From Candidatus Woesearchaeota archaeon (GTDB lineage: Archaea; Nanobdellota; Nanobdellia; Pacearchaeales; GW2011-AR1), in assembly GCA_012798335.1 (NCBI GenBank), contig JAAZNJ010000005.1, positions 1 to 39,211 of the forward strand: a stretch of 39,211 nt of DNA. The letters run 5' to 3'. Shown piece after piece: positions 4,502 through 24,713 of the stretch. The position numbers were made by a program, and so were the translations under genes. The notes below the pieces were generated by a model. That model did no database searches, was not told the DNA's origin, and saw nothing but the letters and a program-made list of their open reading frames with translations. Position 1 is the first letter of the stretch. Every line of letters begins with the position of its first letter.

Positions 4502-4623
4502 CTTTTACTTTATATTAAGAAATTTTTATTTTATAAATCTTCCTTTATAGAGATTGGAAAATATTGAGAGATTTTATAAAAGATTATATAACAAATTAAA
4601 TAAAATTTGATGTCAAGATAAAG

Positions 4624-4633
4624 TTTTATAAAA
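4624..4633 (+). promoter_or_regulatory. TATA-box-like element (TTTTATAAAA) about 25 nt upstream of the ArsR-family ATG; implies a leaderless or near-leaderless mRNA
   Basis: Called from sequence and spacing only. AT-rich background makes this weak. Confidence 0.3.
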
Positions 4634-4653
4634 TTGATAATACTTAATATTTT

Positions 4654-4974
4654 ATGAAAAACGAACTTCTCATATTAAAGGCTTTAGCTGATGAAACGAG
4701 ATTAAAAATTGTTGAACTTTTAATAGAAGGAGAAAAATGTGTTTGTGAAATTTTTCCATATATTAAAAGAACTCAATCTACTATTTCTCTTCAATTAGAA
4801 GTTTTAAAAAAAGCAGGAATTTTAGATTCAAAAAAACAAGGAAGAAAAGTTTATTATTTTATTTCTAATAATAAAATTTATTCCATTTTAGAATTATTAG
4901 GAATTAAAACTGATAAAAAGAATAAGAATAATGGGAATAATAAGGATTATAAAAATAAGACGTATAAAAAATAA
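4654..4974 (+). CDS. ArsR/SmtB-family metalloregulatory HTH repressor
   Basis: LKALADETRLKIVELL...EKCVCEI...STISLQLEVLKKAGIL...GRKVYY. Shows the typical ArsR wHTH, with a CVC metal/metalloid-sensing motif in helix 3. Confidence 0.85.
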   Translation: MKNELLILKALADETRLKIVELLIEGEKCVCEIFPYIKRTQSTISLQLEVLKKAGILDSKKQGRKVYYFISNNKIYSILELLGIKTDKKNKNNGNNKDYKNKTYKK

Positions 4975-10315: not shown

Positions 10316-10403
10316 TTTATAAATATTACTGTTCTCTTAGTTTTATTAAAATCTTTGATAGTTAATAGTTTATTATTTAACTAATAATTTACAATCTACT
10401 TAG

Positions 10404-10432
10404 TTTAAAGTTAATGCTATCAGTTATTTAAT
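10404..10432. repeat. Copy 1 of a degenerate direct repeat inside the 708-bp non-coding region
   Basis: TTTAAAGTTAATGCTATCAGTTATTTAAT matches 10707-10735 at 24/29 positions. Flanking colinear anchors (GTTCTCTT at 10331/10630, TCTTTTTTTAT at 10493/10785) suggest a ~170-nt duplicated module with ~300-bp period. Confidence 0.4.
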
Positions 10433-10706
10433 CTTAACAAATGTTCATAATTTTTAAGATTTATCTTGTTTAGAATCTCTAATTTTTAATAATCTTTTTT
10501 TATTTCATATTAAATTAATCTTTATCTTAAAAAATTTTTAATAGAACTTATTTTATTTAAATTAATTTATATTTTTGTTAATTAATAATTCTAATTATTC
10601 ATTTAATCTGCTTAACTCATTAAAATATAGTTCTCTTTTTAATAAAATAACTTTTTTATTCTTAAAAAATTAAAATATAATCATTAAATAATTCTTTACA
10701 CCTTAT

Positions 10707-10735
10707 TTTAAAGTTAATTCTATTGATTATCTAAT
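10707..10735. repeat. Copy 2 of the degenerate direct repeat
   Basis: TTTAAAGTTAATTCTATTGATTATCTAAT; see copy 1. Confidence 0.4.
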
Positions 10736-11023
10736 TATAATAAACCTTAATACTTCTTAAAGTTTGTTTATTAATTTTTAATTCTCTTTTTTTATATATA
10801 AAAAATAAATAGGATTATAATTCAAACAAGTTTATGCTTAAAAAGAATACTCTTTAATTAATAAGAGTTTATTATCAGATAAATATATTTAATAATTAAT
10901 AGTTTACAAAATTATACTAAATTATAAATCATTTTGCATTTTAAATATTTCATAAACAATAAACTTAAATAATAAAAATTAATTTTATTAATATTAAATC
11001 TTAATTTTTTATAATAAAACAAA

Positions 11024-13123
11024 TTAAAAATCTGTTCCTAAAATTCTTTTATATTCTTCCCCTGCTTTATATCTTCCACTATAAAGAAGATTTGCTTTTT
11101 TTATGTCAGCAGGTCCTGCACTTTTCATATTTCCCATAACAGAATATTGTCTCATTAAAGTTGTTCCTTCACCATGAGGAGAAGTAATAGCATGATTTAA
11201 TTCATGCATTCCTACTCTTTTTAACCATTCATAATTTCCATAAATCTGCATGGTATTCAATCTTATTACTGCTCCATTTAAGATATGAGTATTTGGACTA
11301 TTATTTAAATATTGAACACCTGTTAGTCCTGCACAAGGAACATTATTAATATCTCTTAAATCATAAACAGGAACAACAACTATCCAATTTGGATGAGAAG
11401 AAAATCCTGCTATGTTATACCAATAATGAAACTTTGTAGTATTTTCATCATCTATCTGAACTTTTACACTTCCACTATCAATTGCAGAATCAAGCTTATG
11501 ATTAAACAAAGCTTTAACACCATCACTCGCATATATTCTTTCTCTCAACGCCTCTCTTGCTAATGAATTAAATTCTCCTCTATCTGGATCAGGATGTTTA
11601 TATAAAACTTCAATCCCTTCTATTGTTGATAAATCCCATTTTTCTAAGGAATAATCAGGATATGTGTTTAAAACAAACTGATAAAAATCTTGTTTTGTTA
11701 CAGGAAATGTTGAAGGATTAGGGCTTGGCTCGCAAACCATTACAATATTATCATAATCTTTTGAAGCATCAAGAATTAAACTTCTTACATAACTCTTATT
11801 GTCTCCATCAAGATTTCCTGGGTCATTAAATCTCGCTCTTAATAAAATCTTGTTAATTACTTTATTTGCTTGAACATTAAATTTTCCATCAGGAGTTGAA
11901 GTTTCAGGAATCACATTTTCTCCTTTGGTAATACTACCATAAACTTCTTTGATAACATCATAGGCAATAACATCCCCTGCCTTTGTTATTCCTTCATCTT
12001 CTCCATTGCTTTCAATTTGTCCTTTGATATTACATAAATTGTAAATTATTCCTTCTAAATCAGCTGTGTTCTTGTTTGTTTCATCTGTTCCAAAACTTAA
12101 TCTTAATTTATAATTTTGATTTTGAGAAACAGCTTTTGCTTTTATTGAGAGTTCTTTTGTTGTTGGATTTAATGAAATACTATCAAGATAAGCATTGCCT
12201 TCTATAACATCTACTTTTGTATAAGGAATTATTCCAGGAGTATCTTCATCTGTTGGTTCAGGAAGAGTGATTGTTTTTTCTTTACCATCTATTAAACTTT
12301 TATCAACAGCTGAAAGGTCAACTTGTGGAAGCTTATTCACAGGAATATTTCCCACATTAACATCAACACTATTTCTTCCAACATTCCCTTTATCATCATA
12401 AGCTTCACCATAAACTTTTATTATACCAGGTGTATTAAATTGTTTTGAAAATGATATCACATTATTTTGTTCTTTTACCTCATCACTACTAACTGTGCCA
12501 TCTAAGTTAAAATCAGCATACAACTTATACTTAACAATTGTATCTCCATCTTCATCTGTAGCATTTAAACTTAATTGAGAAGATTCCCCAACTTTTAGAG
12601 AGTTTGGATTTGCGCTTAAGCTAACAACAGGAGCATGATTAACTATTGGAATATCATTAACAATAACTTCTAAACTTTTTACATCACTTGTCAATCCTTT
12701 ATTATCTACAACCATAGCAGAAAATTTAGCTTTTCCAACATAATCTAATTGTCTATTAACATCAATAGGTGTTTCTTGGTCTATTGTCTCATCTATACTG
12801 CCATTTCCATCATAATCTGCATCCAAATGATAACTAACAATAAATTTGTCTGATTTTGCATTCACATCTCTTAAATTTTTCAAACTCTTTGCTGTTCCAT
12901 TAACCTTAACATTTACAGATTCTCCTTTATTAACATTTGTTTTATTAACAGTTAAAGTTGCTTCTGGTGGCAAATCAGAAGGAGGAAAAGGAGTACAATC
13001 TTGACAACTAACAATCATTGAACTTGCTGCTAAAGCTAACCCCAATCTTCTTAAATTCCTTTTTATCTTTTTTGAATTCTCTTTTATATTACTAACAAAA
13101 TCTTGCAAGGTTCTTGTCATCAC
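11024..13123 (-). CDS. Secreted or lipid-anchored zinc metalloprotease (metzincin-like) with two tandem Ig/PKD-like domains
   Basis: GTG/ATG start. N-terminal TM with possible lipobox (LALAASSMIVSC). Two repeated domains with DxDxDG-type loops (DADYDGNGSIDE, ADFNLDGTVSSDE). C-terminal HELNHAITSPH fits the HExxHxxxxxH spacing of metzincins, followed by a candidate Met-turn (YSVMG). Confidence 0.65.
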   Translation of the reverse strand: MMTRTLQDFVSNIKENSKKIKRNLRRLGLALAASSMIVSCQDCTPFPPSDLPPEATLTVNKTNVNKGESVNVKVNGTAKSLKNLRDVNAKSDKFIVSYHLDADYDGNGSIDETIDQETPIDVNRQLDYVGKAKFSAMVVDNKGLTSDVKSLEVIVNDIPIVNHAPVVSLSANPNSLKVGESSQLSLNATDEDGDTIVKYKLYADFNLDGTVSSDEVKEQNNVISFSKQFNTPGIIKVYGEAYDDKGNVGRNSVDVNVGNIPVNKLPQVDLSAVDKSLIDGKEKTITLPEPTDEDTPGIIPYTKVDVIEGNAYLDSISLNPTTKELSIKAKAVSQNQNYKLRLSFGTDETNKNTADLEGIIYNLCNIKGQIESNGEDEGITKAGDVIAYDVIKEVYGSITKGENVIPETSTPDGKFNVQANKVINKILLRARFNDPGNLDGDNKSYVRSLILDASKDYDNIVMVCEPSPNPSTFPVTKQDFYQFVLNTYPDYSLEKWDLSTIEGIEVLYKHPDPDRGEFNSLAREALRERIYASDGVKALFNHKLDSAIDSGSVKVQIDDENTTKFHYWYNIAGFSSHPNWIVVVPVYDLRDINNVPCAGLTGVQYLNNSPNTHILNGAVIRLNTMQIYGNYEWLKRVGMHELNHAITSPHGEGTTLMRQYSVMGNMKSAGPADIKKANLLYSGRYKAGEEYKRILGTDF

Positions 13124-13162
13124 TAAATAATGATTTTTCTTATTTATATTTTTTTTGGTTTT

Positions 13163-13191
13163 AAAAAAAGCTTATTAAATTAATATTATAA
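13163..13191. repeat. Left copy of a perfect 29-bp direct repeat (AAAAAAAGCTTATTAAATTAATATTATAA)
   Basis: Identical 29-mer at 15044-15072. The sequences diverge immediately outside on both sides. Confidence 0.9.
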
Positions 13192-13220
13192 CAAAATTTG
13201 TTAAATACGATGTAGAAATA

Positions 13221-13230
13221 TTTAAAAATA
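13221..13230 (+). promoter_or_regulatory. TATA-like TTTAAAAATA about 25 nt upstream of the peptide B ATG
   Basis: Spacing fits a leaderless archaeal transcript. Weak in this AT-rich context. Confidence 0.25.
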
Positions 13231-13249
13231 TATAAATCTTAATAAAATT

Positions 13250-13453
13250 ATGAATAATCTAGCTAGTCTAGTTGAAAGTATAGACGGGCTTTTTATAAAA
13301 AGATCTCATCCTGACAGAGTAGTCCTTTCCTATCAAGAGAAAAAATTACTTGAACAATATATATCCACAGAAATTAATTGTTACGATTGTGATTCTTGTA
13401 ATAGTTGTGGTTCTGGGGATTGTAATTCTTGTTGTGAAGTTGTTGATGATTAA
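13250..13453 (+). CDS. Cys-rich small peptide B (candidate RiPP precursor)
   Basis: 67 aa. Cys-free 43-aa leader-like part, then CYDCDSCNSCGSGDCNSCCEVVDD (7 Cys, mostly CxxC period-3 spacing, acidic tail). Its stop is 11 nt before the radical SAM ATG. Confidence 0.6.
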   Translation: MNNLASLVESIDGLFIKRSHPDRVVLSYQEKKLLEQYISTEINCYDCDSCNSCGSGDCNSCCEVVDD

Positions 13454-13464
13454 TCTAAAAAGGG

Positions 13465-14550
13465 ATGGTAAGAAAGATTTTTATCCAATGGGATTCAACG
13501 AATGATTGTAATCTTCGTTGTAGTCATTGTTATCATAATAGAGAAGGAGAAGAACATTCTTCTCATAAACAGGGATTAAATGCTATGTCTTTAGAAGATG
13601 TTATTTTAATGATTAATGATCTAAATGAAACCGCAAAAAGATGGTCTATGAAACCAAGATTTCAAATTTCTGGAGGAGAACCTTTAATGAGAAAAGATCT
13701 TTATTCTATCTTGGAATATACTAAAAATCTTAAAATGGAAGTAAGAATATTAACAAATGGAACTTTGATAACCGAAGAAAAAGCAAGGGATTTTTATGAA
13801 TTAGGAATTAGAAGATTACAAATTTCTTTAGACGGAAATAAGAAGAGACATAATCTTATAAGGGGTCAACCTTTTGCATATGATCTAGCCATTCAAGGAA
13901 TAAAAAATTGTGCAATTAATAATATAGAAGTTACAGTTTCTATGACTGCATTAAAATCAAATATACAAGATTTTGAAGACGTAATAATTAATTCTATTAA
14001 AGCAGGAGCAAAATATGTAGGAACAAAATCTTATGTCCCAAATCCTTTATTAGGTGTTAATGATCCTGAATTCCTGGATTGTGAAGATTTATACCTTTTG
14101 TATAAAAAAACGAGGGATTTAGAACAAAAATATTCTAAAAAAATTAATGTATTACAAACAGAAGTTTTATGGCATTTAATGCAATGGGATACTAAGATAA
14201 AAAAAGAAGCAAGAGAAAAAGATCTTTTTTTAAGTGGTTGTGGAGCAGGATTTTCTGGCCTTTCAGTTTTATCAGATGGGACAGTTTATCCATGTAGAAG
14301 ATTACCACTTCCTATAGGAAATATTAAAGAGGGATTTGCTAATTTAATGTTAAATAACCCTATTCTTAAAGATTTAAGAGATTTTGAAAAAATGAGAGCT
14401 AAAATGGATAATTGTCAACATATCCCTTATTGTAGGGGTTGTAGAGCAATTGCTTATGCAACAACTGGAGATTACATGGCTAAAGATCCAATGTGTTATA
14501 AAGAATTGGTTACTCCAAAAGATATTCAACCTAGGGTAATTAGAAGATGA
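13465..14550 (+). CDS. Radical SAM enzyme with C-terminal SPASM-type auxiliary Fe-S domain
   Basis: CNLRCSHCY (CX3CX2C) at residues 15-23. GGEPL SAM-binding motif. C-terminal C-x12-G-x4-C (CGAGFSGLSVLSDGTVYPC), then CQHIPYCRGC ... DPMCY. Confidence 0.9.
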   Translation: MVRKIFIQWDSTNDCNLRCSHCYHNREGEEHSSHKQGLNAMSLEDVILMINDLNETAKRWSMKPRFQISGGEPLMRKDLYSILEYTKNLKMEVRILTNGTLITEEKARDFYELGIRRLQISLDGNKKRHNLIRGQPFAYDLAIQGIKNCAINNIEVTVSMTALKSNIQDFEDVIINSIKAGAKYVGTKSYVPNPLLGVNDPEFLDCEDLYLLYKKTRDLEQKYSKKINVLQTEVLWHLMQWDTKIKKEAREKDLFLSGCGAGFSGLSVLSDGTVYPCRRLPLPIGNIKEGFANLMLNNPILKDLRDFEKMRAKMDNCQHIPYCRGCRAIAYATTGDYMAKDPMCYKELVTPKDIQPRVIRR

Positions 14551-15059
14551 ATACTAATGAAATAATTAAAACTTGTTTAAAAGATTTAGAGCCTAAGAAT
14601 GTTTTAGATTTAGGAATTGGAAAAGGAAGATGTTCTAAAATTTTTTTGAAAAAAGGGGTTGAAATTATAGGGGTTGATTTAAAAGATTATAAAATTCCAG
14701 GTATAAAATTTGTTAAATCTAATATAAAAAATTTTGATTTTAAAGAAAATTTTGATTTAATTATAGCTTCTTTAGTTCTTCATTTTTTAAATAAAGATTT
14801 ATCCCTTGAAATAATAAAAAAAATAAAAACCTTTACAAATAAAAATGGGCATAATTTTATTTTAACAATGAATAAGAGGGATAATCTTTTTAAAAAAAAC
14901 AAAAATAATTTTTATTTTGATGAAGAAGAACTTAAAGAATTATATAAAGATTGGGAAATAATCAAATCAGGAAATTTTGAAACCGATTTGGAAGAACATG
15001 ATAATCTAAAACCTCATAAACATAATCTTTCATTTATACTAACAAAAAAAGCTTATTAA
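14547..15059 (+). CDS. Class I SAM-dependent methyltransferase
   Basis: Motif I VLDLGIGKG, acidic end of beta-2 (IIGVDL), motif II-like LIIASLVLHF. ATGA overlap with the radical SAM stop. Confidence 0.8.
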   Translation: MNTNEIIKTCLKDLEPKNVLDLGIGKGRCSKIFLKKGVEIIGVDLKDYKIPGIKFVKSNIKNFDFKENFDLIIASLVLHFLNKDLSLEIIKKIKTFTNKNGHNFILTMNKRDNLFKKNKNNFYFDEEELKELYKDWEIIKSGNFETDLEEHDNLKPHKHNLSFILTKKAY

Positions 15060-15072
15060 ATTAATATTATAA
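15044..15072. repeat. Right copy of the perfect 29-bp direct repeat
   Basis: Covers the last four codons plus stop of the methyltransferase (KKAY*). Ends 6 nt before the stop of the convergent gene 15079..15429. Confidence 0.9.
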
Positions 15073-15078
15073 AAAGGG

Positions 15079-15429
15079 TTAAAACTTTAAACTTATACTC
15101 AAATCAAAACCATTATTCTCTTTTGAAAAAAATCTTTTTTTTCTTTCAAATGAAACATGAATACCTTGGGTTTCATCTAATCTTTTTTGAGATAAAGAAC
15201 TTAAATAATCATGAGCAATAAATGATGCACTATCCATTGCCTTTTCATTTACTCTGTCTTCAGAAAGTTTTTTTAATAAATCTGAAGCTTCATAAGGTGT
15301 TCTTCTTGCAATAGCAGTTTCAGGACTTTCAGGCTTTAAATGTTCTAATGTATAAAGATTATTATCATAAATAAATGGGTTTATATCTGTTATTCTAGAA
15401 TAATTATAAGGGATTAAAGAATTTATCAT
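15079..15429 (-). CDS. Hypothetical protein
   Basis: 116-aa ORF, ATGA-coupled to the upstream ORF 15426..15932. No recognisable motif. Confidence 0.4.
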   Translation of the reverse strand: MINSLIPYNYSRITDINPFIYDNNLYTLEHLKPESPETAIARRTPYEASDLLKKLSEDRVNEKAMDSASFIAHDYLSSLSQKRLDETQGIHVSFERKKRFFSKENNGFDLSISLKF

Positions 15430-15932
15430 CCAAACATAACCTCCAAACCTTTTTTATTCTCTTTTTTTCTCATACCATTCATGCTTGGATTATAATAAAA
15501 AGATAATCCAGAATAATCTTCTAAGCCATCTTTTTTTATTTCTTTAAAATATTCTATTAATCTTTCAAAAGCACTATAAATTTTTTGATTATAAGAATAT
15601 ATTCTTTCTTGAAAATTTTTCATTGATAAAGATAATGGAAATCCTGAATTTGTTAAAACTTTATCTTCTATTGTTTTATCTTTCTCCTTTTTCTTTTCAA
15701 AATTTTCTTTTTCAGTTTCTTTGGGTATTTCTTTTTTGTTAAATAAATAATTAATTAAACCTTTCTTATCATTCAATTCAAGATAAAAACCATTTCTAGT
15801 TTTATAAGCATCAAAAAATGAAAAAATTCCTTGTCTTGATTTTTCATAGAATTTTCTATCTCTTTCTTTATTAATCTCTTTCCTATAATTAAAATATTCT
15901 TTTAATCTCCTAAAATATTTAATTATCCCCAT
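15426..15932 (-). CDS. Hypothetical protein (Lys/Glu-rich, soluble)
   Basis: 168-aa ORF, first gene of a two-gene unit. No recognisable motif. Confidence 0.4.
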   Translation of the reverse strand: MGIIKYFRRLKEYFNYRKEINKERDRKFYEKSRQGIFSFFDAYKTRNGFYLELNDKKGLINYLFNKKEIPKETEKENFEKKKEKDKTIEDKVLTNSGFPLSLSMKNFQERIYSYNQKIYSAFERLIEYFKEIKKDGLEDYSGLSFYYNPSMNGMRKKENKKGLEVMFG

Positions 15933-16170
15933 GTTTTATTAAATAGTTTATTTTTTATAAGTTTAATTATTCTATCAATATCTGTAATTAATCATAATTC
16001 CCAATATTTTAATAAAAAACATTTAAATATAAACTAAATGTTTATGATATATAAAAAAGATTGAAGAAACACTGAATAAAACCTTAGGGAATATTTAAGA
16101 ATAAAACAAAAAATAAAAAACAGATTAATAAAATTAAAAAACATAAACTACCCAAAAATAAACCAGAAAA

Positions 16171-17634
16171 ATGAATAAAAAAAACCAAGATAAAAAAGAA
16201 ATCTTTGAATTGAAATCAAATCAATTGACAGCTTCAAAAAAAGATTTATCAGAATGGTATAACCAATTAATGCTTTTAGCAGATATTGTTGATGATAGAT
16301 ATGCTGTTAAAGGAATGGCTGTTTGGAAACCTTATGGTTATAAGATAATGCAAAACATAAAGAGAAGATGGGATGAATTATTTCAAAATGCAGGAATACA
16401 AGAAGTTTATTTTCCATTGATTGTTCCAATTGAATACTGTGAGCAAAATCCGAGTTGGTGGCAAGGTTTTAAATCAGAAGGTTTTAAAGTTATAGCAGGG
16501 ACTGATAATAAAATTCAAGGAATAATAAGACCAACAGGTGAGCCTGCTATTTATCCAATGTATTCTATGTGGGTAAGATCAAAAAATGATTTGCCAATAA
16601 GATTTTATGAAACAGTAAATAGTTATAGATATGAAACAAAATCAACAAGGCCTTTGATTAGAACAAGAGAGATTAGTGTCTGGCATGAAATTCATACTGC
16701 TCACGCAACAAGAGAAGAAGCAGAAGAGGAATTCCAATTGCATATAAAATTATGGGATGAATTATGGAAAGATTTAGCTTTGCCTTCTTTTAAAGTTGTT
16801 AAACCTATCTGGGAATGTTTTCCAGGAGCAATAGGAGCAGTAGAATATTATTCAACAACACCTAATGGAAGAGTTATGGAAAATGGTTCTGTAAATAATT
16901 TAGGACAAGCTTATGCAAAAAAATTCAATATAAAATTTAAAGATGAAAAAGGTAAAGAACAATATGCTTGGCAAATATGTACTGGGAATGGTGCAAGATT
17001 ATTAGGGGGTTTAATATTAATTCATGGAGACGATAAAGGTTTGATAATTCCCCCAAGAATAGCTCCTATAAAGGCGGTTATTGTCCCAATATTATTTAAA
17101 GGAAAAGAAAAGATTGTTTTAGAAAAAGCAAAAGAACTCTCAAAAGAGTTGAAAGAGTTTGATGTTTATCTTGATGAAAGAAAAGAAAAAACAGCAGGAG
17201 AAAAATTCTATGAATGGGAGATAAAAGGTGTTCCTTTAAGAATTGAAATAGGCCCTAAAGATATAGAAAAAGATTCTTTTGTTTTAGTAAGAAGAGACAC
17301 AGGAAAAAAAGAAATAATTTCAAATAAAGATGCAAAGAAAAAAATTAAAGAAACTCTTGAAGATATACAAGATTCTCTTTTGAAAAAAGCAACAGAAATG
17401 TTAAACTCCCAAATAAAAGATGCAAAAACATTAGAAGAAGTTAAATCAAATGTGAAATCAGGAAAAATCTCAAGAGTTTTTTGGTGTAAAGAAGGAGAGT
17501 GTTATGATAAAATATCAGAAACAGCAGAGGGTCTTGAGGGTTTTGGCTCTGATCTTGAAAAAAAAGAAGAAGGCCATTGCATAATTTGTAATAAAAAGAC
17601 AAAAACAAAATTATATTTAGCGAAGAGTTATTAA
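16171..17634 (+). CDS. proS: Prolyl-tRNA synthetase, archaeal/eukaryotic type
   Basis: Class II aaRS core with a ProRS-like signature (RPTGEPAIYPM, TRPLIRTREISVWHEIHTAH). Anticodon-binding domain (KAVIVPI). C-terminal Zn-binding domain with Cys pairs (FWCKEGEC, GHCIICNKK) and a terminal Tyr (..AKSY), typical of the archaeal-type enzyme. Confidence 0.9.
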   Translation: MNKKNQDKKEIFELKSNQLTASKKDLSEWYNQLMLLADIVDDRYAVKGMAVWKPYGYKIMQNIKRRWDELFQNAGIQEVYFPLIVPIEYCEQNPSWWQGFKSEGFKVIAGTDNKIQGIIRPTGEPAIYPMYSMWVRSKNDLPIRFYETVNSYRYETKSTRPLIRTREISVWHEIHTAHATREEAEEEFQLHIKLWDELWKDLALPSFKVVKPIWECFPGAIGAVEYYSTTPNGRVMENGSVNNLGQAYAKKFNIKFKDEKGKEQYAWQICTGNGARLLGGLILIHGDDKGLIIPPRIAPIKAVIVPILFKGKEKIVLEKAKELSKELKEFDVYLDERKEKTAGEKFYEWEIKGVPLRIEIGPKDIEKDSFVLVRRDTGKKEIISNKDAKKKIKETLEDIQDSLLKKATEMLNSQIKDAKTLEEVKSNVKSGKISRVFWCKEGECYDKISETAEGLEGFGSDLEKKEEGHCIICNKKTKTKLYLAKSY

Positions 17635-17718
17635 ATGATTTTTAAAATATATTCAAAAAATAAATTCTGAAAACTTTATTCTATGAATGAAGAGAATGAA
17701 TTGTATAAATATTTCTTT

Positions 17719-18414
17719 TTAAATTTCAATTATTTTCATCTTTCCGGGATTAATTATTCTTGTCCCTTCAAAATTAACTTCTCCAGGAATATGTATATGT
17801 CCACAAATAAACAATTTTGGTTGAATTTTAATTATATATTTTTTCAAAATTTTTGAACCCATGTGTCCAACATAAGATTTAATAAATTCTGGTGGATTTG
17901 GATTAAAATCTAATATTTTATAGGGGGGGAGATGAGATAAGATTATATCTACTTTTTGACTCTTTTTTAAAAAAGTACCTAATTTTTTTTCATCATCATT
18001 TGCTCTTTTTTGGGTATTTTCATTGTCTGGTTTATACTTTTTGGCCCACCATTTTTCAACAAAAAAATCAAATCCAATAATTTTAAGGCCTTTTATTTTT
18101 ATCTCTTCCTTATCACAATGGATTATTCCTTTTTTCTTCATTAAAGAAATTATTTCAGATTTTGCAAGTTCTTCAGCATTTCCTAAACTTGCTACTATGG
18201 GACATTTAAATTTAATTAATTCTTCAAAAAATTTTTCAGATGATTGGATTATCTCTTCTTTAGCTTCTTTAACAGAACCTCCTTCAAAAATCATTTTTCT
18301 TAATTTGTCTCCTTTTGCAAAATCCCCTGCAACCAAAATTAAATCTATCTTCTCATTAGTCTCTGGAATTTCTCCATGTGCATCAACTGATAAGAGTATT
18401 TTCATTTTAGACAT
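17719..18414 (-). CDS. Calcineurin-like metallophosphoesterase
   Basis: Motifs SVDAHG (DxH), AGDFAKG (GD), LGNAE (GNHE variant), SHLPP and CGHIH (GHxH). Start moved from the GTG at 18537 to MSKMKILL (ATG 18414), because the family begins just before the DxH strand. Confidence 0.7.
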   Translation of the reverse strand: MSKMKILLSVDAHGEIPETNEKIDLILVAGDFAKGDKLRKMIFEGGSVKEAKEEIIQSSEKFFEELIKFKCPIVASLGNAEELAKSEIISLMKKKGIIHCDKEEIKIKGLKIIGFDFFVEKWWAKKYKPDNENTQKRANDDEKKLGTFLKKSQKVDIILSHLPPYKILDFNPNPPEFIKSYVGHMGSKILKKYIIKIQPKLFICGHIHIPGEVNFEGTRIINPGKMKIIEI

Positions 18415-18582
18415 AAATTTATACTTACAAATAACAAAACGAAAAAAGTATTTAACTTTTTCTATCCTAAATAAAATTAACAATAATCTGCGTATTGAAT
18501 CCAGTCTTCTTTCTTCTTCTTGTTGTCTGACCCACACCCAACTAACTTTGGAGGTATTAACTTCTTCCTCTTTTCGGGTTTT

Positions 18583-19698
18583 TTATCTTTCATAGAAACA
18601 ATATGGATCCTTATGTTTAAAAGTTTTATGTATACTATATGAAGAAGCTTTACACCCTCCCAAACAATGTTCTTTTTTGTTACAACTCTTACATTCTTCA
18701 GGTAAGAAATCTTTAATAAACTTATATTTATTTTTAGAATTCCATATATCTTTAAGATTATCTTTTAATATATTTCCCATCTTAAACTTTTTAAAAGGTA
18801 ACAATTGACAAGGATAAACATCTCCATTGGATTCTATAATCATCTTGCTAAATCCTCCAGAACATTTTCGGGTTATTATTTCTTGTTTTTTCTCACCCAA
18901 AAGAAAACAAAAAGTATGGTCAAAAACAATCTCTGGGGTTTTTATTTTCTTGGATAAACTAATAAGCTTTTTTGTTACTTCCTTAAACTCTAAAGGAGAT
19001 AACATTGAATCAATGAAATTCTCTCCTTCCCCTAAAGGATAGAATTTAGAAAATTGTAAAGCTTTTACTTTCGTTTTTTTAAGTATTTCTATATATTCTT
19101 CTAAATATGGGAGAAATTGTTTTGTAAGAGTGGTATTTATTGTAATATCTATCTTATTATCAGTTAATCTTTTTATATTTTGGGTGGTTTTTTCAAAACT
19201 CCCCTCTTTTCTAATAAAGTCGTGAATTTTTTTAGGACCATCTAAACTAACATTTAATTTTAAAGTTTTTCTATATTTTTTAAAAAGAGGGAGAAGTTCT
19301 TTTACTTTTTTGGAGTTATAAACATTTGTAAATAAAGTAACATTGCAATTTTCACATAAGATAGGAATTATTTCTTTAATTCCTTCTTTAATTGTAGGTT
19401 CACCCCCAGTAACTAAGACTTCAAAAATTTTATTTTTAACGATTAATTTTGATATAGTTATTAATTCTTCTTTTGATAATTCTTCTTTTTCTAAATTTTT
19501 TTTATTTAGATAGCAATGTTTACAATTTAAATTACATTTTTTTGTTATTCTCCATTGAATTCTTAAAGGTAATTCAAATCCTTTTTCATAAATTGTATCT
19601 ATCTCTTTTTGATCTAAATTTTCAAAGAAGTATCTTCTATTTTTTTTATCGAATAAAATGAAACCATTCTTTTCTTTTCTTCTTATTTCTTCTATCAT
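18583..19698 (-). CDS. Radical SAM enzyme with canonical seven-Cys SPASM domain
   Basis: CNLNCKHCY (CX3CX2C) after a ~50-aa N-terminal extension. GGEPT. C-x12-G-x4-C (CSGGFSKMIIESNGDVYPC), then CKSCNKKEHCLGGC (CX2CX5CX3C), then DPYC. Confidence 0.9.
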   Translation of the reverse strand: MIEEIRRKEKNGFILFDKKNRRYFFENLDQKEIDTIYEKGFELPLRIQWRITKKCNLNCKHCYLNKKNLEKEELSKEELITISKLIVKNKIFEVLVTGGEPTIKEGIKEIIPILCENCNVTLFTNVYNSKKVKELLPLFKKYRKTLKLNVSLDGPKKIHDFIRKEGSFEKTTQNIKRLTDNKIDITINTTLTKQFLPYLEEYIEILKKTKVKALQFSKFYPLGEGENFIDSMLSPLEFKEVTKKLISLSKKIKTPEIVFDHTFCFLLGEKKQEIITRKCSGGFSKMIIESNGDVYPCQLLPFKKFKMGNILKDNLKDIWNSKNKYKFIKDFLPEECKSCNKKEHCLGGCKASSYSIHKTFKHKDPYCFYER

Positions 19699-20372
19699 TT
19701 TAATGGGGGTAACAAACTCGATTTATTTTTTTCAATATCTTTCATTATTTCTTTAATTAATCCTATTTCCCTTATATCAGAAAATTTTACTTTTTTGTAT
19801 ATTTGTTCTGTTTTTTCTGGGAGGTAATTAATTAAGTAAGAGATTTTTTTTGGATTAGCATATTCTGAGATGTCCAACCTTCTAAACCCCAATTCAATAA
19901 TTCTATCCATAAGATACTGAATTGAGAGAATTGCTGATTCAAGATCGTTTTTTTCTAATCCCTTTCTAACATTTATAGAAGTTCTTTCGACCAAATCGTA
20001 ATCTCCCCCTATAATTGTCTGTTCTTTCCAGGCATCTTCTTTTAAATTTTGCTTTTTTGCACAATTTATTAAATCTTGATAAATTCCATTTGGATCATAA
20101 ATAGGTTTTGAATTCCTAAATCGATCAATAATCCTAACTTCTTTTAAAGAAATTGCATTCAATATGTTTATTGGATCTTCAAAATAAATTTCAAATATTA
20201 AACCAGAATCTCTAATAATTCTTCTTGGAAGATGTTCTTTTAATACATATAAATCTACATCTGAATTTAATGTTATTTCTTTAGCTCCGCTTCCAAATAT
20301 CCCTATAGCCTTTGGAGAAAATTCCTTTGTTAATTCATTTTGAACTTTTTTTATACTTATTTTATGTACCAT
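19695..20372 (-). CDS. Pol-beta superfamily nucleotidyltransferase with C-terminal helical domain (KNTase-like architecture)
   Basis: GIFGSGAKEITLNSDVDLYVL fits the G[GS]-x(9-13)-DxD signature. ATGA overlap with the radical SAM start (19695-19698). Confidence 0.7.
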   Translation of the reverse strand: MVHKISIKKVQNELTKEFSPKAIGIFGSGAKEITLNSDVDLYVLKEHLPRRIIRDSGLIFEIYFEDPINILNAISLKEVRIIDRFRNSKPIYDPNGIYQDLINCAKKQNLKEDAWKEQTIIGGDYDLVERTSINVRKGLEKNDLESAILSIQYLMDRIIELGFRRLDISEYANPKKISYLINYLPEKTEQIYKKVKFSDIREIGLIKEIMKDIEKNKSSLLPPLK

Positions 20373-21517
20373 TTTAATCCTTTATATATCCCTAAAAATA
20401 ATCCTTTAATTACATTTAGTGTTTGTTTAAGGTTATTGCTCTCTTTATCTATATTACAAGATAAATTTAAACTATCCCTTCTAGAAATTTTAAAGCTTTT
20501 AGACTGTTTAATCATCCTAAAAGCATAACCTTTCATACCAACTCTTTTTTTTGAAAAAGGATAATATCTCACAATTTGGGCAAATTCATTGGAAATTCTA
20601 TCTTTAATCCAATCTTGTTCTCTTATGTCTCTACATCCACCAGAAAGATCAAAACAATTTGAAGAATCAATAATCTGAGATATACTAAAACCCTTTAGTT
20701 GATGGGATAATATTCCTTCCAGAGAATCATTTAAAATAAATTTTATCTTTTCTAAATCTATTAAAGGGATAGAATCCAATGATTCTTTTAGAGTAACTAA
20801 AGATTTTACTCCAAACTTTAAATGTAAACACGCAGTTTTTGGATCCGGTAAGTAAAAGATGTTATATCCTTTATCTTTTAACCTCCACACTAGTTCACTT
20901 TCCATGGCATAATCATTTTTTCCACTACTTCTAAATCCCCCAACTTCTTTTAAAGCAAGAGTATTATAAATTCCATAACTAGCTCCGAGAGAAATTGGGA
21001 TTAAGGGGAATTTATCTTTAGAAGAGATTAATTCTTCTGGAAAGGAAGTTAAAAACCAAGAATTAATTCCTTTGGACATATCAATTTTCCCTATATTTTC
21101 TAATGGAACAAAAGAAGTGGGAAATGGAAGTCGATTATACGCTGGGAAGATTACTGCGCCAGTATCTTTTTTAGTAAATTCTATATAAGACAAAATTTTT
21201 TCAATTGTTTTTTCATTATAAAAAACAGAATCATCGTCTAATATTAAATGCCAGGGAGATTTAATAAATTCTAAAGCATATCTTCTAATTCCTGAACACC
21301 CTAATCTTTTGTCAGACTTAAAATATTTAAAACCATATTCCTTACATTTTTTTTCAATATTTTTTGACTGTTCTATTTTAGAATTATCATCTACCACCAG
21401 AACATCTGGTTTATAAGATTGATTATCTATTGAATCTAAAGTCCAGCTTAAAGGAATTCCATAAGGAAGATTATATCTATTGTGGGTACCAATCAATATA
21501 GATAACTCTTTATCCAT
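20357..21517 (-). CDS. Family 2 glycosyltransferase (GT-A fold)
   Basis: LSILIGTHNRYN first strand, VLVVDDNS, and the DxD motif in LILDDDS. Overlaps the downstream nucleotidyltransferase by 16 nt. Confidence 0.75.
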   Translation of the reverse strand: MDKELSILIGTHNRYNLPYGIPLSWTLDSIDNQSYKPDVLVVDDNSKIEQSKNIEKKCKEYGFKYFKSDKRLGCSGIRRYALEFIKSPWHLILDDDSVFYNEKTIEKILSYIEFTKKDTGAVIFPAYNRLPFPTSFVPLENIGKIDMSKGINSWFLTSFPEELISSKDKFPLIPISLGASYGIYNTLALKEVGGFRSSGKNDYAMESELVWRLKDKGYNIFYLPDPKTACLHLKFGVKSLVTLKESLDSIPLIDLEKIKFILNDSLEGILSHQLKGFSISQIIDSSNCFDLSGGCRDIREQDWIKDRISNEFAQIVRYYPFSKKRVGMKGYAFRMIKQSKSFKISRRDSLNLSCNIDKESNNLKQTLNVIKGLFLGIYKGLKWYIK

Positions 21518-21576
21518 AAAAATTATAGCAATTTATTCTTTAAAAATATTCCTTTTCAATTGTTACTTTATAATGA

Positions 21577-21996
21577 TTACTTTGGCTTAATTGTAATTAG
21601 ATTTCTCTTTTTTAAACAAAGCTTAAATAATTCTTCTTTAGTCCTAACCCAAATTATTTTATCTAAATAATCTTCATATTTTATTAAAATCTTCTTGAAT
21701 ATTCTTATGGGGGAGAAGTAAGCATATTGGTAATTATCTCCTTTTTTTGCTTCAACATCTACTTCATACACATATCCTTCTTTTGCAGGTTCGTAATCTC
21801 CAACAATCATTAATTTCTCTGGAGGTAAAGCAAAATCAGTTTTCCCTTTGAGAGACTTACCTAAAGCGTAAAGTGCAGCTTGATTAAAATTGTCTGTAAG
21901 AAATATTGCTTTTTTATTTTCAAAATCAGTCTCTCCTTTTGCTAATTTCGGTTTCAATACCTTCAAATTTTGTGGAGAACCATGATATAATTTCAT
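21577..21996 (-). CDS. Hypothetical protein with N-terminal LYHGS motif
   Basis: 139 aa beginning MKLYHGSPQNL, then ...AIFLTDNFNQAALYA...GYVYEVDV. Same strand as the GT2 gene and 59 nt upstream of it. Confidence 0.45.
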   Translation of the reverse strand: MKLYHGSPQNLKVLKPKLAKGETDFENKKAIFLTDNFNQAALYALGKSLKGKTDFALPPEKLMIVGDYEPAKEGYVYEVDVEAKKGDNYQYAYFSPIRIFKKILIKYEDYLDKIIWVRTKEELFKLCLKKRNLITIKPK

Positions 21997-22095
21997 TTTT
22001 TATAGAAATTCTTAATTGAAGGATCAAATTTTATAAAACAAGAAAATAAGAATGATTTTGACATAGTTATTAAAGGAAAATATAATGGGATAAAG

Positions 22096-22511
22096 ATGTC
22101 ACAATTGTTAGATAAGGTAACTAAACCTAAAAAAATCAACTTTTAATCGGAGAAGGAAAGTATCATAAAAGGAGATTTAAAATTGGAGAGAATATTATTT
22201 GTCCTTTTGCCATTCATTATTCAGATGATTTTTTTGAAATTTCAAAAAGAAAAAAATTAAAAAATAAAAAAGAAGTAATAGCAAAAATTATTGATTCTTC
22301 TGAATCTCTATTTTCTCCAGCAGTGTATAAAATAAAAACAAAAGAAGGTAGAGTCTGTTTTTTAATAAGTTATTTTGTTGGGCATGTACATCTTTTTCAA
22401 AAAGGAGATATAATTAAGTTTAAAGCTCCTCTTTTTGAATTTTCTAAAAATTTAGTAAAAAGAGAAAGTTTTGTTATCCCCATTCAAGGATCTTGGGTTG
22501 AAATAGACTAA
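22096..22511 (+). pseudogene. Frameshifted gene of unknown function (or a homopolymer assembly error)
   Basis: ATG at 22096 reads MSQLLDKVTKPKKINF* (stop 22144-22146). A long start-less ORF in the -1 frame is open from 22131 to 22511 (..IGEGKYHKRRFKIGENIICPFAIHYSDDFF...WVEID*). Adding one A to the A7 run at 22129-22135 fuses them into about 139 aa. Confidence 0.45.
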
Positions 22512-22520
22512 TTTTCTTTT

Positions 22521-23282
22521 TTAAAATACTTGTTCCTTTATAAAAGCGTTTATTTTTTTCCAGTATTCTTCAATTAAATTTAAAGAAATTGCATGTCCTG
22601 ATGAATGTTCTATTAACTCTGTTTTTTTAATCTTTTTTATTATGTTATTTATATGTTTTATAGAAACAACTTCATCTTTAGGATCGTGGAAAATTAAAAC
22701 AGGACAATTTAATCTAACTAGATAGTAAGATGGAGAAATTTCTTTAAATTTCTTTAATTGAACGTTTAATTTATTAAATTTTATTCTATAAAAATTAAAA
22801 TATGCTCTTTTTACAAAATCAATTAAATGAGAAAGATCTTGTTCAGTCTTATCTTGATTATGTTTTTCAAAATCTCAAACAGGAGAAAAAAGAATAATTT
22901 TATCTATTTTATTTTTTAATTTTGCACTAATGCCCCATGCAATTGCTCCACCAAAACTACCTGTTAAGAGGATTAGTTTTTTATTATTAAAATATTTATT
23001 TTTTAAATCCTATAAACTTAATGCTTTTTTATCATCTAATTTAACAATAAAATTTGCAAGTTCTTCAATTACATTTTTCTCTAAAAATGACCTTTACTTT
23101 GAAAAAACCCACTATATCTTAAATAAAAAACATTAAACCCCTTATTAAAAAAACTTCATTAAATCATCTTCTTTATTTGAACTAGGAAATCCTGGAAGAA
23201 TAAGAATAGCATCTGCAGGTTCATTATGTGTTAAAAATTCAAAGAAAATATTTCCATAATAAGCTTTAAGGATATTAACCAT
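22521..23282 (-). pseudogene. Alpha/beta-hydrolase (esterase/peptidase-like) pseudogene
   Basis: Reverse-strand reading from ATG 23282 gives MVNILKAYYGNIFFEFLTHNEPADAILILPGFPSS..., a LILLTGSFGGAIAWG nucleophile elbow (GxSxG), ...CPVLIFHDPKD... and ...EHSSGHA. It is interrupted four times: by two compensating frameshifts in homopolymer runs (plus-strand A7 at 23147-23153 and A5 at 23083-23087), by an in-frame TAG (23010-23012), and by an in-frame TGA (22875-22877). Confidence 0.7.
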
Positions 23283-23336
23283 CTTAAGTTATTGGTCCTT
23301 AAATTTAAAAATATATAGTAAAAGTTAGTTTTGTTT

Positions 23337-24713
23337 TTATCCCTTTATGACAATCAAAGGTTTCATTCTTGCAATCTTTTTACTTATTCCCAAATCATCA
23401 ACAATTTTTATAACTTCATCAACATCTTTGTAAACCTGTGGAGCTTCTTCTGCGAGTGATTGCATACTTCCTGCTTGGACTTCAATTCCTTGATTATTTA
23501 ATTGTTGTTTTATCTCTTTTCCTTTTAATTCTTTTAAAGCTGAATTCCTACTACTTATTCTTCCTGCACCATGAACAGTGCTTCCAAAAGTTAACTCTTC
23601 TGCTTTTTTTGTTCCAATTAACAAATAAGAACTTGTTCCCATGCTTCCAGGAATTATAACTGGTTGTTTGTCAAAACTTCTTGTTGCTCCTTTTCTGCAA
23701 ACTAAAACTTTTTTCAATTTTCCATCAATAGCATGTTCTTCAAATTTAGCAATATTATGGCAAACATCATAAACAACATTGATTTTTGATTCAGGAAAAA
23801 TTTCTTTTATTGCTTCTCTTACCCAATGAGTTATTAATTGTTTATTAGCAAAAGCAAAATTAGCAGCACAGCACATTGCCTTGTAATAATTTTTTCCTAT
23901 CTCGCTGTTTATAGGTGCATTAATTAATTCTCTATCTACTAAATTCTCAAAACCATATTTGTCTTCCATAACTTTTATATAATCACTTGCAACTTGATGA
24001 CCTAAACCCCTACTACCACAATGCACCATTATTGTTATTTGATTTTTTTCTAAACCAAAAACTTTTGCAATTTCTTCATCAAAAATCTCATCAATATATT
24101 GAACTTCAAGAAAATGATTTCCTGCTCCTAAAGTCCCTAACTGGCCTATCCCTCTTTTTTTTGCTCTTTCAGAAACTTTTGAAGAATCACAATCTTTCAT
24201 GCATTCTTGTTCCTCTGTTGAAAGATAATCTTCTTTTTCACCAAATCCTTTTTCAACAAAATATCTTGCTCCTTGTTCAAGAACTTTATCTAATTCTTTA
24301 AAAGAGAGATTAAAGTGACTTCCTCTCCCAACACCAGAAGGTATCTTTTTATACAACAAATCTGTTAATTGTTTTTGTTTTTCTAAAACTTGCTTTTTAG
24401 TTAAATTTGTTTTTAATAATCTTACAGAACAATTTATATCATAACCGATTCCTCCAGGAGAAATTACTCCTTTATCAATATCAAAAGCAGCAACACCACC
24501 TATAGGAAAACCATATCCTTGATGACAATCAGGAAGAGCAATAGCATTTTTTATAATCCCTTTAAGTGTTGCAACATTTTTTATTTGTTCTAAAGTTTTA
24601 TCTTTTTTTATTGTTTCAAGCATTTTTTCATCTGCTATCACAATAGAAGGGACATTCATATTTCCTTCCTTAGGAATTTCATAAATATTTTTTGATTTTT
24701 CTTTTATTTTCAT
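23337..24713 (-). CDS. rtcB: RNA-splicing ligase RtcB (3-prime-phosphate/5-prime-hydroxyl RNA ligase)
   Basis: Motifs PDCHQGYGFPIGGV, GGIGYDINCSVR, GAGNHFLEVQ, HCGSRGLGHQ and HGAGR (nucleophilic His). No intein. Confidence 0.95.
   Translation of the reverse strand: MKIKEKSKNIYEIPKEGNMNVPSIVIADEKMLETIKKDKTLEQIKNVATLKGIIKNAIALPDCHQGYGFPIGGVAAFDIDKGVISPGGIGYDINCSVRLLKTNLTKKQVLEKQKQLTDLLYKKIPSGVGRGSHFNLSFKELDKVLEQGARYFVEKGFGEKEDYLSTEEQECMKDCDSSKVSERAKKRGIGQLGTLGAGNHFLEVQYIDEIFDEEIAKVFGLEKNQITIMVHCGSRGLGHQVASDYIKVMEDKYGFENLVDRELINAPINSEIGKNYYKAMCCAANFAFANKQLITHWVREAIKEIFPESKINVVYDVCHNIAKFEEHAIDGKLKKVLVCRKGATRSFDKQPVIIPGSMGTSSYLLIGTKKAEELTFGSTVHGAGRISSRNSALKELKGKEIKQQLNNQGIEVQAGSMQSLAEEAPQVYKDVDEVIKIVDDLGISKKIARMKPLIVIKG

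Follow-up and report, generated by a model that had tools for sequence, protein, structure and literature searches.

A three-gene RiPP cassette between direct repeats in a Woesearchaeota genome: a probable long target duplication around a module without its own recombinase

The closest described counterparts of the genes treated here are the ranthipeptide and sactipeptide clusters for peptides made by the ribosome and modified after translation (RiPPs), such as SCIFF-CteB, SkfA-SkfB and ACGX, in which a Cys-rich precursor adjoins a radical S-adenosylmethionine (SAM)/SPASM maturase. With regard to their arrangement, the systems to be compared are DNA transposons and insertion sequences (IS), att-bounded integrative elements, integron gene cassettes and Xer/dif modules. 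The attC site of an integron cassette is an imperfect hairpin with R'' and R' core sites at the cassette 3' end. A dif-like site measures 28 bp, contains two inverted 11-bp arms and is conserved in the host. Integrons of archaea have been described by Ghaly et al. 2022 (PMC9668308). The locus considered here lies in a stretch of 39,211 nucleotides (nt) from Candidatus Woesearchaeota archaeon (contig JAAZNJ010000005.1), called the window below. A segment of 1.85 kb with three genes, encoding a Cys-rich precursor peptide, a radical SAM/SPASM maturase and a TehB-like methyltransferase, stands here between two direct copies of the 29-mer AAAAAAAGCTTATTAAATTAATATTATAA on the + strand (copy 1, R1, and copy 2, R2; Table 1). 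The two 29-mers are probably the duplicated target site of an insertion of this cassette, which looks like a mobile module without a recombinase gene of its own. Literature searches brought up no account of cassettes of this kind.

A preliminary description of the window had reported perfect 29-bp direct repeats around the cassette, and on re-reading of the sequence all its coordinates prove right. R1 ends 58 nt before the peptide ATG (13250). R2 spans the methyltransferase codons K-K-A-Y and the stop codon (15057-15059), and its end is 6 nt away from the stop codon of the convergent open reading frame (ORF) of 116 aa (15079). The base 5' of the repeat is T at copy 1 and C at copy 2, so that identity breaks there; in the other direction 31 of 32 bases agree (the 30th base is C versus A) and identity ends abruptly beyond, as had been reported. 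The window shows a G+C content of ~26% throughout and is rich in A/T low-complexity words. None of 100 dinucleotide-preserving shuffles reached two or more matches to the 29-mer, which agrees with the earlier estimate that a 29/29 match is improbable by chance. The possibility that the 29-mer is a common dispersed element had also been raised; the window contains only the two copies on either strand, even with up to 3 mismatches allowed, and exact matches are absent from 185,579 GTDB species-representative genomes and from IMG/VR. The fold of the repeat with its flanks is no better than that of shuffled sequences (z = 0.7 and 1.3).

Both repeat copies are found in the same geometry in same-species contigs from NCBI (L016, a 129-kb contig of GCA_030154545.1), JGI (L017-L019) and Logan (L020 and L021); in L021 the second copy, which lies at the end of the contig, has 2 differing bases. 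Run X1 yielded one k=31 contig that covers 12998-15127 at a depth equal to that of the flanks. These six agreeing assemblies and the continuous Logan contig depth across the repeats rule out an assembly artefact.

The history of the site is indicated by a sister lineage, in which an empty-site allele with a single repeat copy joins the left flank to the right flank. This allele is present on two independent contigs from different samples, L045 (1.27 kb) and L047 (25 kb), the former a JGI contig found via a 97%-identical homologue of the 116-aa neighbour. L045 shows window positions 12648-13199 (90% identity) directly joined to 15044-15454 (96%), and for both contigs together the joined segments are 12648-13199 (90%) and 15044-15940 (93-96%). 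The junction of L045 reads ...TTTTTGGTTT AAAAAAAAAGCTTATTAAATCAAAATTATAA AAAATTTAAAAC..., where AAAAAAAAAGCTTATTAAATCAAAATTATAA is the single repeat copy. It is identical to the window 29-mer at 27 of 29 positions, and the two differences match the 4-10% divergence of the flanks. The gene order of L047 is 699-aa orthologue, one repeat, 116-aa gene, 168-aa gene and the prolyl-tRNA synthetase gene (ProRS, 92% identical). L047 and the cassette-bearing contig L017 originate from the same sample. An allele in which one 29-mer joins 13162 to 15073 had been predicted, and L045 and L047 carry it; it supports insertion, with target duplication and microhomology, among the explanations offered at the time for the repeats. 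Two more distant relatives, L001 and L012 (ProRS 88% and 84% identical), also lack the cassette at this place, and by parsimony the change at the site would therefore be a gain in the window lineage rather than a loss.

Comparison with relatives of the cassette separates the parts of the repeat. Cassette-family homology (L022, L023, L028, L054, L032 and L034 against the window) is limited to 13203-15050, and because it covers only this range, the alignments show the repeat minus its A-run to be local target sequence and not cassette. The methyltransferase family ends in ...ILAKK followed by a variable tail of 0-10 residues, which leaves the A-run as the only cassette-like part of the repeat. 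The 22 nt of R2 after the A-run, GCTTATTAAATTAATATTATAA, are target sequence that would supply the last two codons and the stop of the methyltransferase. On the strand of the 116-aa and 168-aa genes the repeat reads ...GCTTTTTTT, and its oligo-T run may be the terminator of these genes. A duplicated promoter or regulatory site was considered and rejected: the 699-aa gene does have a conserved promoter-like box, GAATATAAAT when read on that gene's strand, which stands outside the repeat and to its left, and copy 2 in the window faces a convergent gene.

The scar recurs at other cassette loci. To assess recurrence, the upstream region of each cassette was compared with the surroundings of the methyltransferase stop; comparison of the same upstream region with random windows of its own locus served as the null, whose maximum was 12-17 across loci. 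The window itself reaches 29/29 against a null maximum of 16-17. A bracketing repeat of 29/29 (AATAATCCCTTTATAATCAATAAATCTAT), overlapping the methyltransferase stop, is found in L027-L030, four assemblies of one Woesearchaeota lineage. L037 shows 27/27 (CAAAAAAGAAATTATAGGTTTGGTTAA), formed by the final 27 nt of a gene for an ATP-dependent DNA ligase and likewise by the methyltransferase end, and this repeat, too, shares CAAAAAAG with the AKK codons of the methyltransferase. L032 shows 20/22. The repeats of L032, L027-L030 and L037 are far above the null of their own locus. The 17/17 repeat of L039 belongs to a longer repeated element of ~90 nt, and L022, L023, L031, L034, L036 and L041 show no repeat above the null. 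Between the window, L028, L037 and L032 the repeat sequences bear no relation to one another and have no motif in common. L054 and L055 have only the cassette in common (99.6% identity), with differing flanks, which suggests mobility.

The following course of events is proposed. An ancestral spacer of 76 nt between the 116-aa and 699-aa genes would have held one repeat copy, as it still does in the sister lineage, and the promoter with the three-gene RiPP module (~13192-15050) would have entered that spacer. The right junction would lie inside an A-run common to the methyltransferase end (...ACA AAA AAA, the conserved KK) and the target, and the left junction ~22 nt further downstream in the target. 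Because of this offset between the junctions, a target stretch of ~22 nt would now stand on both sides of the cassette, and target DNA would have given the methyltransferase its last two codons and its stop. The insertion would have duplicated ~22-29 bp of target, with microhomology at the 3' junction of the cargo. Two routes are conceivable: a staggered break with fill-in and microhomology-mediated joining (route 1), or an 'ends-in' or Campbell-type joining of a circularised cassette (route 2). The cassette itself lacks a recombinase gene, so the joining would be the work of a factor acting in trans. The repeats would now render the cassette deletable or excisable by recombination between the copies, and looping out of the cassette is possible.

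As stated in the preliminary description, no integrase or transposase gene lies inside the cassette, whose genes are those of the peptide, the radical SAM/SPASM protein and the methyltransferase, and recombinase domains are likewise absent from the scanned window ORFs of at least 90 aa (39 kb). Terminal inverted repeats are absent: the left end CAAAATTTGTTAAATACG and the reverse complement of the right end ...TTTATACTAAC have nothing in common, and no inverted pairs at the cassette ends are among the 25 longest repeats listed. Upstream of the peptide gene, L028 and L022 preserve the A/T box GAAATATTTAAAAATATATAAA, which probably acts as a promoter. The presence of this conserved promoter-like box inside the inserted segment excludes a retrocopy of an mRNA.

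Several observations weigh against a target duplication upon insertion. With 20-29 bp, the duplication is far longer than in classical DNA transposons, where 2-15 bp are usual. Six of the ~12 distinct cassette loci lack a bracketing repeat. No donor, circular form or junction read was seen in the runs of the organism, which were examined as contigs; X22, a run of raw reads, does not contain the organism. ProRS occupies the spot in L001 and L012, so the site has been rearranged more than once, and we therefore infer the direction of gain, by parsimony over three lineages. The repeats of L021 form a hybrid: copy 1 reads TTAATA as in the window, and copy 2 reads TCAAAA as in the empty site. This suits a plain fill-in duplication less well. 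The hybrid leans to route 2, with incoming DNA that had a repeat-like stretch of its own; later recombination with the empty lineage, which co-occurs, would account for it equally well.

The same evidence bears on other explanations of the repeat pair. If the cassette and both repeats were ancestral, the sister lineage of L045 and L047 could have lost the cassette by recombination or replication slippage between the 29-mers. The empty allele has exactly the structure expected from a repeat-by-repeat deletion, repeats of 29 bp at a distance of 1.9 kb are a plausible substrate for it, and both lineages co-occur in the same samples. The absence of the cassette from the distant relatives L001 and L012 and the same scar at unrelated sites nevertheless make such a loss unlikely; since the repeat beyond the A-run is not cassette-family sequence, an insertion-type event would still be required for the duplication itself. 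The repeats could also be the attL and attR sites of a tyrosine, serine or Xer/dif-like recombinase encoded elsewhere, acting on a circular cassette with its own att copy. This fits the direct-repeat geometry and the single-copy empty site, the hybrid of L021 would be a crossover in the left part of the att core (copy 1 being element-type and copy 2 chromosomal-type), and the repeat of L037, as the 3' end of a gene, occupies a classic att position. It is distinctly improbable in view of the lack of a motif common to the repeats of the window, L028, L037 and L032, hence of any conserved att, the lack of repeat conservation in the cassette relatives, the lack of dyad symmetry or dif-like arms, and the lack of a recombinase gene in the sequence scanned.

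A remnant of a second, tandem cassette copy, mostly deleted except for the methyltransferase 3' end upstream, had been suggested earlier on, and copy 1 does read as the last four methyltransferase codons and the stop. This suggestion is to be abandoned as scarcely credible: the same sequence is single-copy in the cassette-free genomes, the methyltransferase family matches the A-run only, nothing to the left of copy 1 resembles a methyltransferase gene, and the same signature occurs independently at three other sites, which would demand two events with a coincident end point in three lineages. A dispersed element, a chance match or an assembly artefact might be suspected in DNA of 26% G+C that is rich in A/T low-complexity words. 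This is very improbable given the shuffles, the restriction to two copies in the window, the lack of exact matches in the two databases and the agreement among six assemblies made independently and drawn from four sources. The explanation retained is that of a target site duplicated when the cassette inserted.

The cassette genes form a recognizable family. The precursor of 67 aa ends in CYDCDSCNSCGSGDCNSCCEVVDD at its C-terminus and matches no Pfam or NCBIfam family; its core is conserved in 6 of 8 aligned precursors and looser in L039 and L041. The precursor core CY[ED]CDSCNSCGSGDCNSCC is found together with the gene trio in L022, L023-25, L027-30, L032 and L054-57, and L039 and L041 show the same gene arrangement with a more divergent core. 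The named carrier genomes of the trio belong to Woesearchaeota, Pacearchaeota and Nanoarchaeota, i.e., to DPANN archaea. The solved structures nearest to the maturase are CteB (5wgg) and SkfB (6efn), both thioether-forming peptide maturases, and the enzyme itself is classed as thioether-type. With ~26% G+C across the whole window, the cassette is not compositionally foreign. IMG/VR contains only distant methyltransferases (27-35% identity), and a viral carrier was rejected on these grounds. In L059-L063 the methyltransferase stands in another context, which is uninformative for the cassette.

Table 1. Features of the cassette locus in the window, and copies of the ~90-nt element in other contigs
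Feature	Position	Strand	Remarks
Left flanking gene, 699-aa predicted surface/secreted protein	11024..13123	-	HELNH motif near C-terminus; adjoins 116-aa gene in empty-site allele
R1, direct repeat copy 1	13163..13191	+	39 nt upstream of 699-aa gene start; aligns to single copy in L045/L047
Inserted segment, left end	13192..13249	+	promoter-like A/T box GAAATATTTAAAAATATATAAA at ~13215-13240; cassette-family homology starts at 13203-13213
Precursor peptide gene, 67 aa	13250..13453	+	core CYDCDSCNSCGSGDCNSCC
Radical SAM/SPASM peptide maturase, 361 aa	13465..14550	+	Pfam Radical_SAM and SPASM
TehB-like SAM-dependent methyltransferase, 170 aa	14547..15059	+	final codons and stop inside R2
R2, direct repeat copy 2	15044..15072	+	A-run encodes methyltransferase KK; remainder is A-Y-stop and 13 nt of spacer towards 116-aa gene
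Right flanking genes, 116 aa and 168 aa	15079..15932	-	no known family
~90-nt element, L054	63-146, 2360-2450, 3035-3084, 3794-3857		
~90-nt element, L055	2403-2493, 3413-3494		
~90-nt element, L056	3-74, 2294-2384, 3006-3086		
~90-nt element, L039	4448-4533		
~90-nt element, L036	10398-10487		
~90-nt element, L003	1984-2038		

Some cassette homologues are bounded by another kind of repeat. A repeated element of ~90 nt, e.g., CTTTGATTTTTTGCCTTCGGCATCGTTGCACTAAAAATCAATCCCTCCAAGTTTTCGGGAGAATATAACAGGAATTA, flanks them in direct orientation in L054-57 and L039. The cassette shared by L054 and L055 begins directly after ...GGAATTA and ends inside the next ~90-nt copy. The stems of the element appear to covary by eye (TTGATTTTT/AAAAATCAA versus TTGGATTTT/AAAATCCAA versus CTGAAATTT/AAATTTCAG); RNAalifold on a poor MAFFT alignment gave the last hairpin only. 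Rfam gave no match for the element, and the window contains no copy of it. Possible interpretations are a recombination site or an IS200/IS605-like or miniature inverted-repeat transposable element (MITE)-like end. At a different locus, L037, a half-length TBP paralogue (4451-4687) is located just downstream of the cassette, with 71% DNA identity to the N-terminal repeat of the full TBP gene (175-762).

The surroundings of the insertion site show rearrangements of their own. In the nearest outgroup contigs the essential ProRS gene (window 16171-17634; L001 2259-3689; L012) has the 116/168-aa pair on its other side: it stands between the 116-aa gene and the 699-aa gene, exactly at the place of the cassette. 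Its 3' end in L001 and L012, GCAAAAAGTTATTAA with the spacer, occupies the exact repeat position and resembles the repeat, which may be a relic of this 3' end; the resemblance is suggestive and not significant. No repeat brackets ProRS itself. In L023 and L028 the cassette and a neighbouring He_PIG gene stand in swapped order, a further sign of mobility. Gene-sized segments, as in the cases of ProRS and of cassette and He_PIG, swap places locally in this clade.

Further differences between the window and its relatives concern neighbouring regions. A 303-nt in-frame segment of the 699-aa gene (window 12345-12647) is represented by GGAACA in the sister lineage; this joint is found in runs X5 and X6, L045 and L047, and the L047 product measures 598 aa. 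To the left of this gene, an intergenic region of ~680 nt (window 10334-11000) with 18% G+C and no ORF contains a 64-nt repeat (10399-10462 and 10702-10765, 75% identity); the region is present in L016, and L047 of the sister lineage has only 31 nt between the flanking genes. A second apparent overlap of 27 nt, between 10334-10974 and L047, proved to be an A/T alignment artefact. On the other side, a 5.7-kb segment between ProRS and RtcB (window 17645-23333) is missing in L016, a contig of the same species in which only 7 nt separate these genes, and its junctions have only the 6-nt sequence TTTTTA in common. Its products are a metallophosphoesterase, another radical SAM/SPASM protein (of 371 aa), a nucleotidyltransferase, a glycosyltransferase of family GT2 and a DUF3990 fragment; a related island with 74% identity to it is found in the sister lineage (L046-L048). 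RtcB of the window (23337-24713) is an intein-free protein of 458 aa, and RtcB of the sister lineage (L046/L047) measures 966 aa with an intein, Pfam Intein_splicing lying between two RtcB halves. The origin-associated proteins OapC and OapB are encoded at the window start (222-1106), and a replication origin may therefore be close by.

DPANN archaea possess tiny genomes, and the routes by which they gain accessory genes are little known. The locus is a clean case from nature, in which the site is known both filled and empty and the junctions are exact, and shows the entry of a biosynthetic cassette without its own recombinase, with a scar that recurs at other sites. It also marks a conserved archaeal family of Cys-rich RiPPs as horizontally mobile. 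Because the filled and empty lineages co-occur in existing digester metagenomes, the mechanism is directly testable there. A tentative and rather doubtful proposal extends further: DPANN archaea might have an undescribed route that moves small recombinase-less modules of promoter and cargo, in which an activity in trans would create a target duplication of ~20-29 bp and join the last conserved codons of the cargo to an A-rich target, the host supplying the stop. The RiPP cassette would then be one member of such a non-autonomous family, and the structured ~90-nt repeats around the L054-L057 and L039 cassettes may belong to that system or to a second one.

With the ranthipeptide and sactipeptide clusters the locus shares the pairing of precursor and maturase described at the outset. 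It differs from them in that all NCBIfam scores are far under the curated cut-offs, the precursor belongs to no family, the TehB-like methyltransferase is an obligatory partner, and the hosts are DPANN archaea. The best NCBIfam model for the maturase is the radical SAM protein of the ACGX system, with 179 bits against a cut-off of 400, and the peptide matches no NCBIfam model, so that the locus falls outside that system (TIGR04340/TIGR04341). The scar resembles the target-site duplication of DNA transposons and IS in its discrete segment and in a direct duplication that is single-copy in the empty allele and differs in sequence by site. In contrast to these elements, the cassette has neither a transposase nor terminal inverted repeats, and one junction lies in microhomology with the cargo gene itself. 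As in att-bounded integrative elements with Campbell-type integration at a gene 3' end, the segment lies between direct repeats a few tens of bp long, the repeat of L037 is the 3' end of a host gene left intact, and the L021 hybrid fits; contrary to them, the cassette has no integrase in cis and no family-wide att, and its 1.85 kb are pure cargo.

Integron gene cassettes are likewise small modules of promoter and cargo without their own recombinase that occur in varied contexts in related genomes. The repeats described here differ in having no attC-like hairpin and in being derived from the target instead of being borne by the cassette. An IntI gene nearby and an array in the window are absent, and a direct reading of the sequence gave no GTTRRRY/RYYYAAC pair of the kind found at attC core sites. 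Unlike the sites of Xer/dif modules (integrative mobile elements exploiting Xer [IMEX] and pdif modules), the 29-mer has 11-nt arms of which neither is an inverted copy of the other, and the repeats differ between genomes. The scar behaves like a target-site duplication or an att pair, yet it lacks defining features of IS and transposons, of integrase-borne islands, of integron cassettes and of dif modules. The locus is accordingly filed as a cassette of DPANN archaea that lacks an integrase and carries a recurrent target duplication of unusual length.

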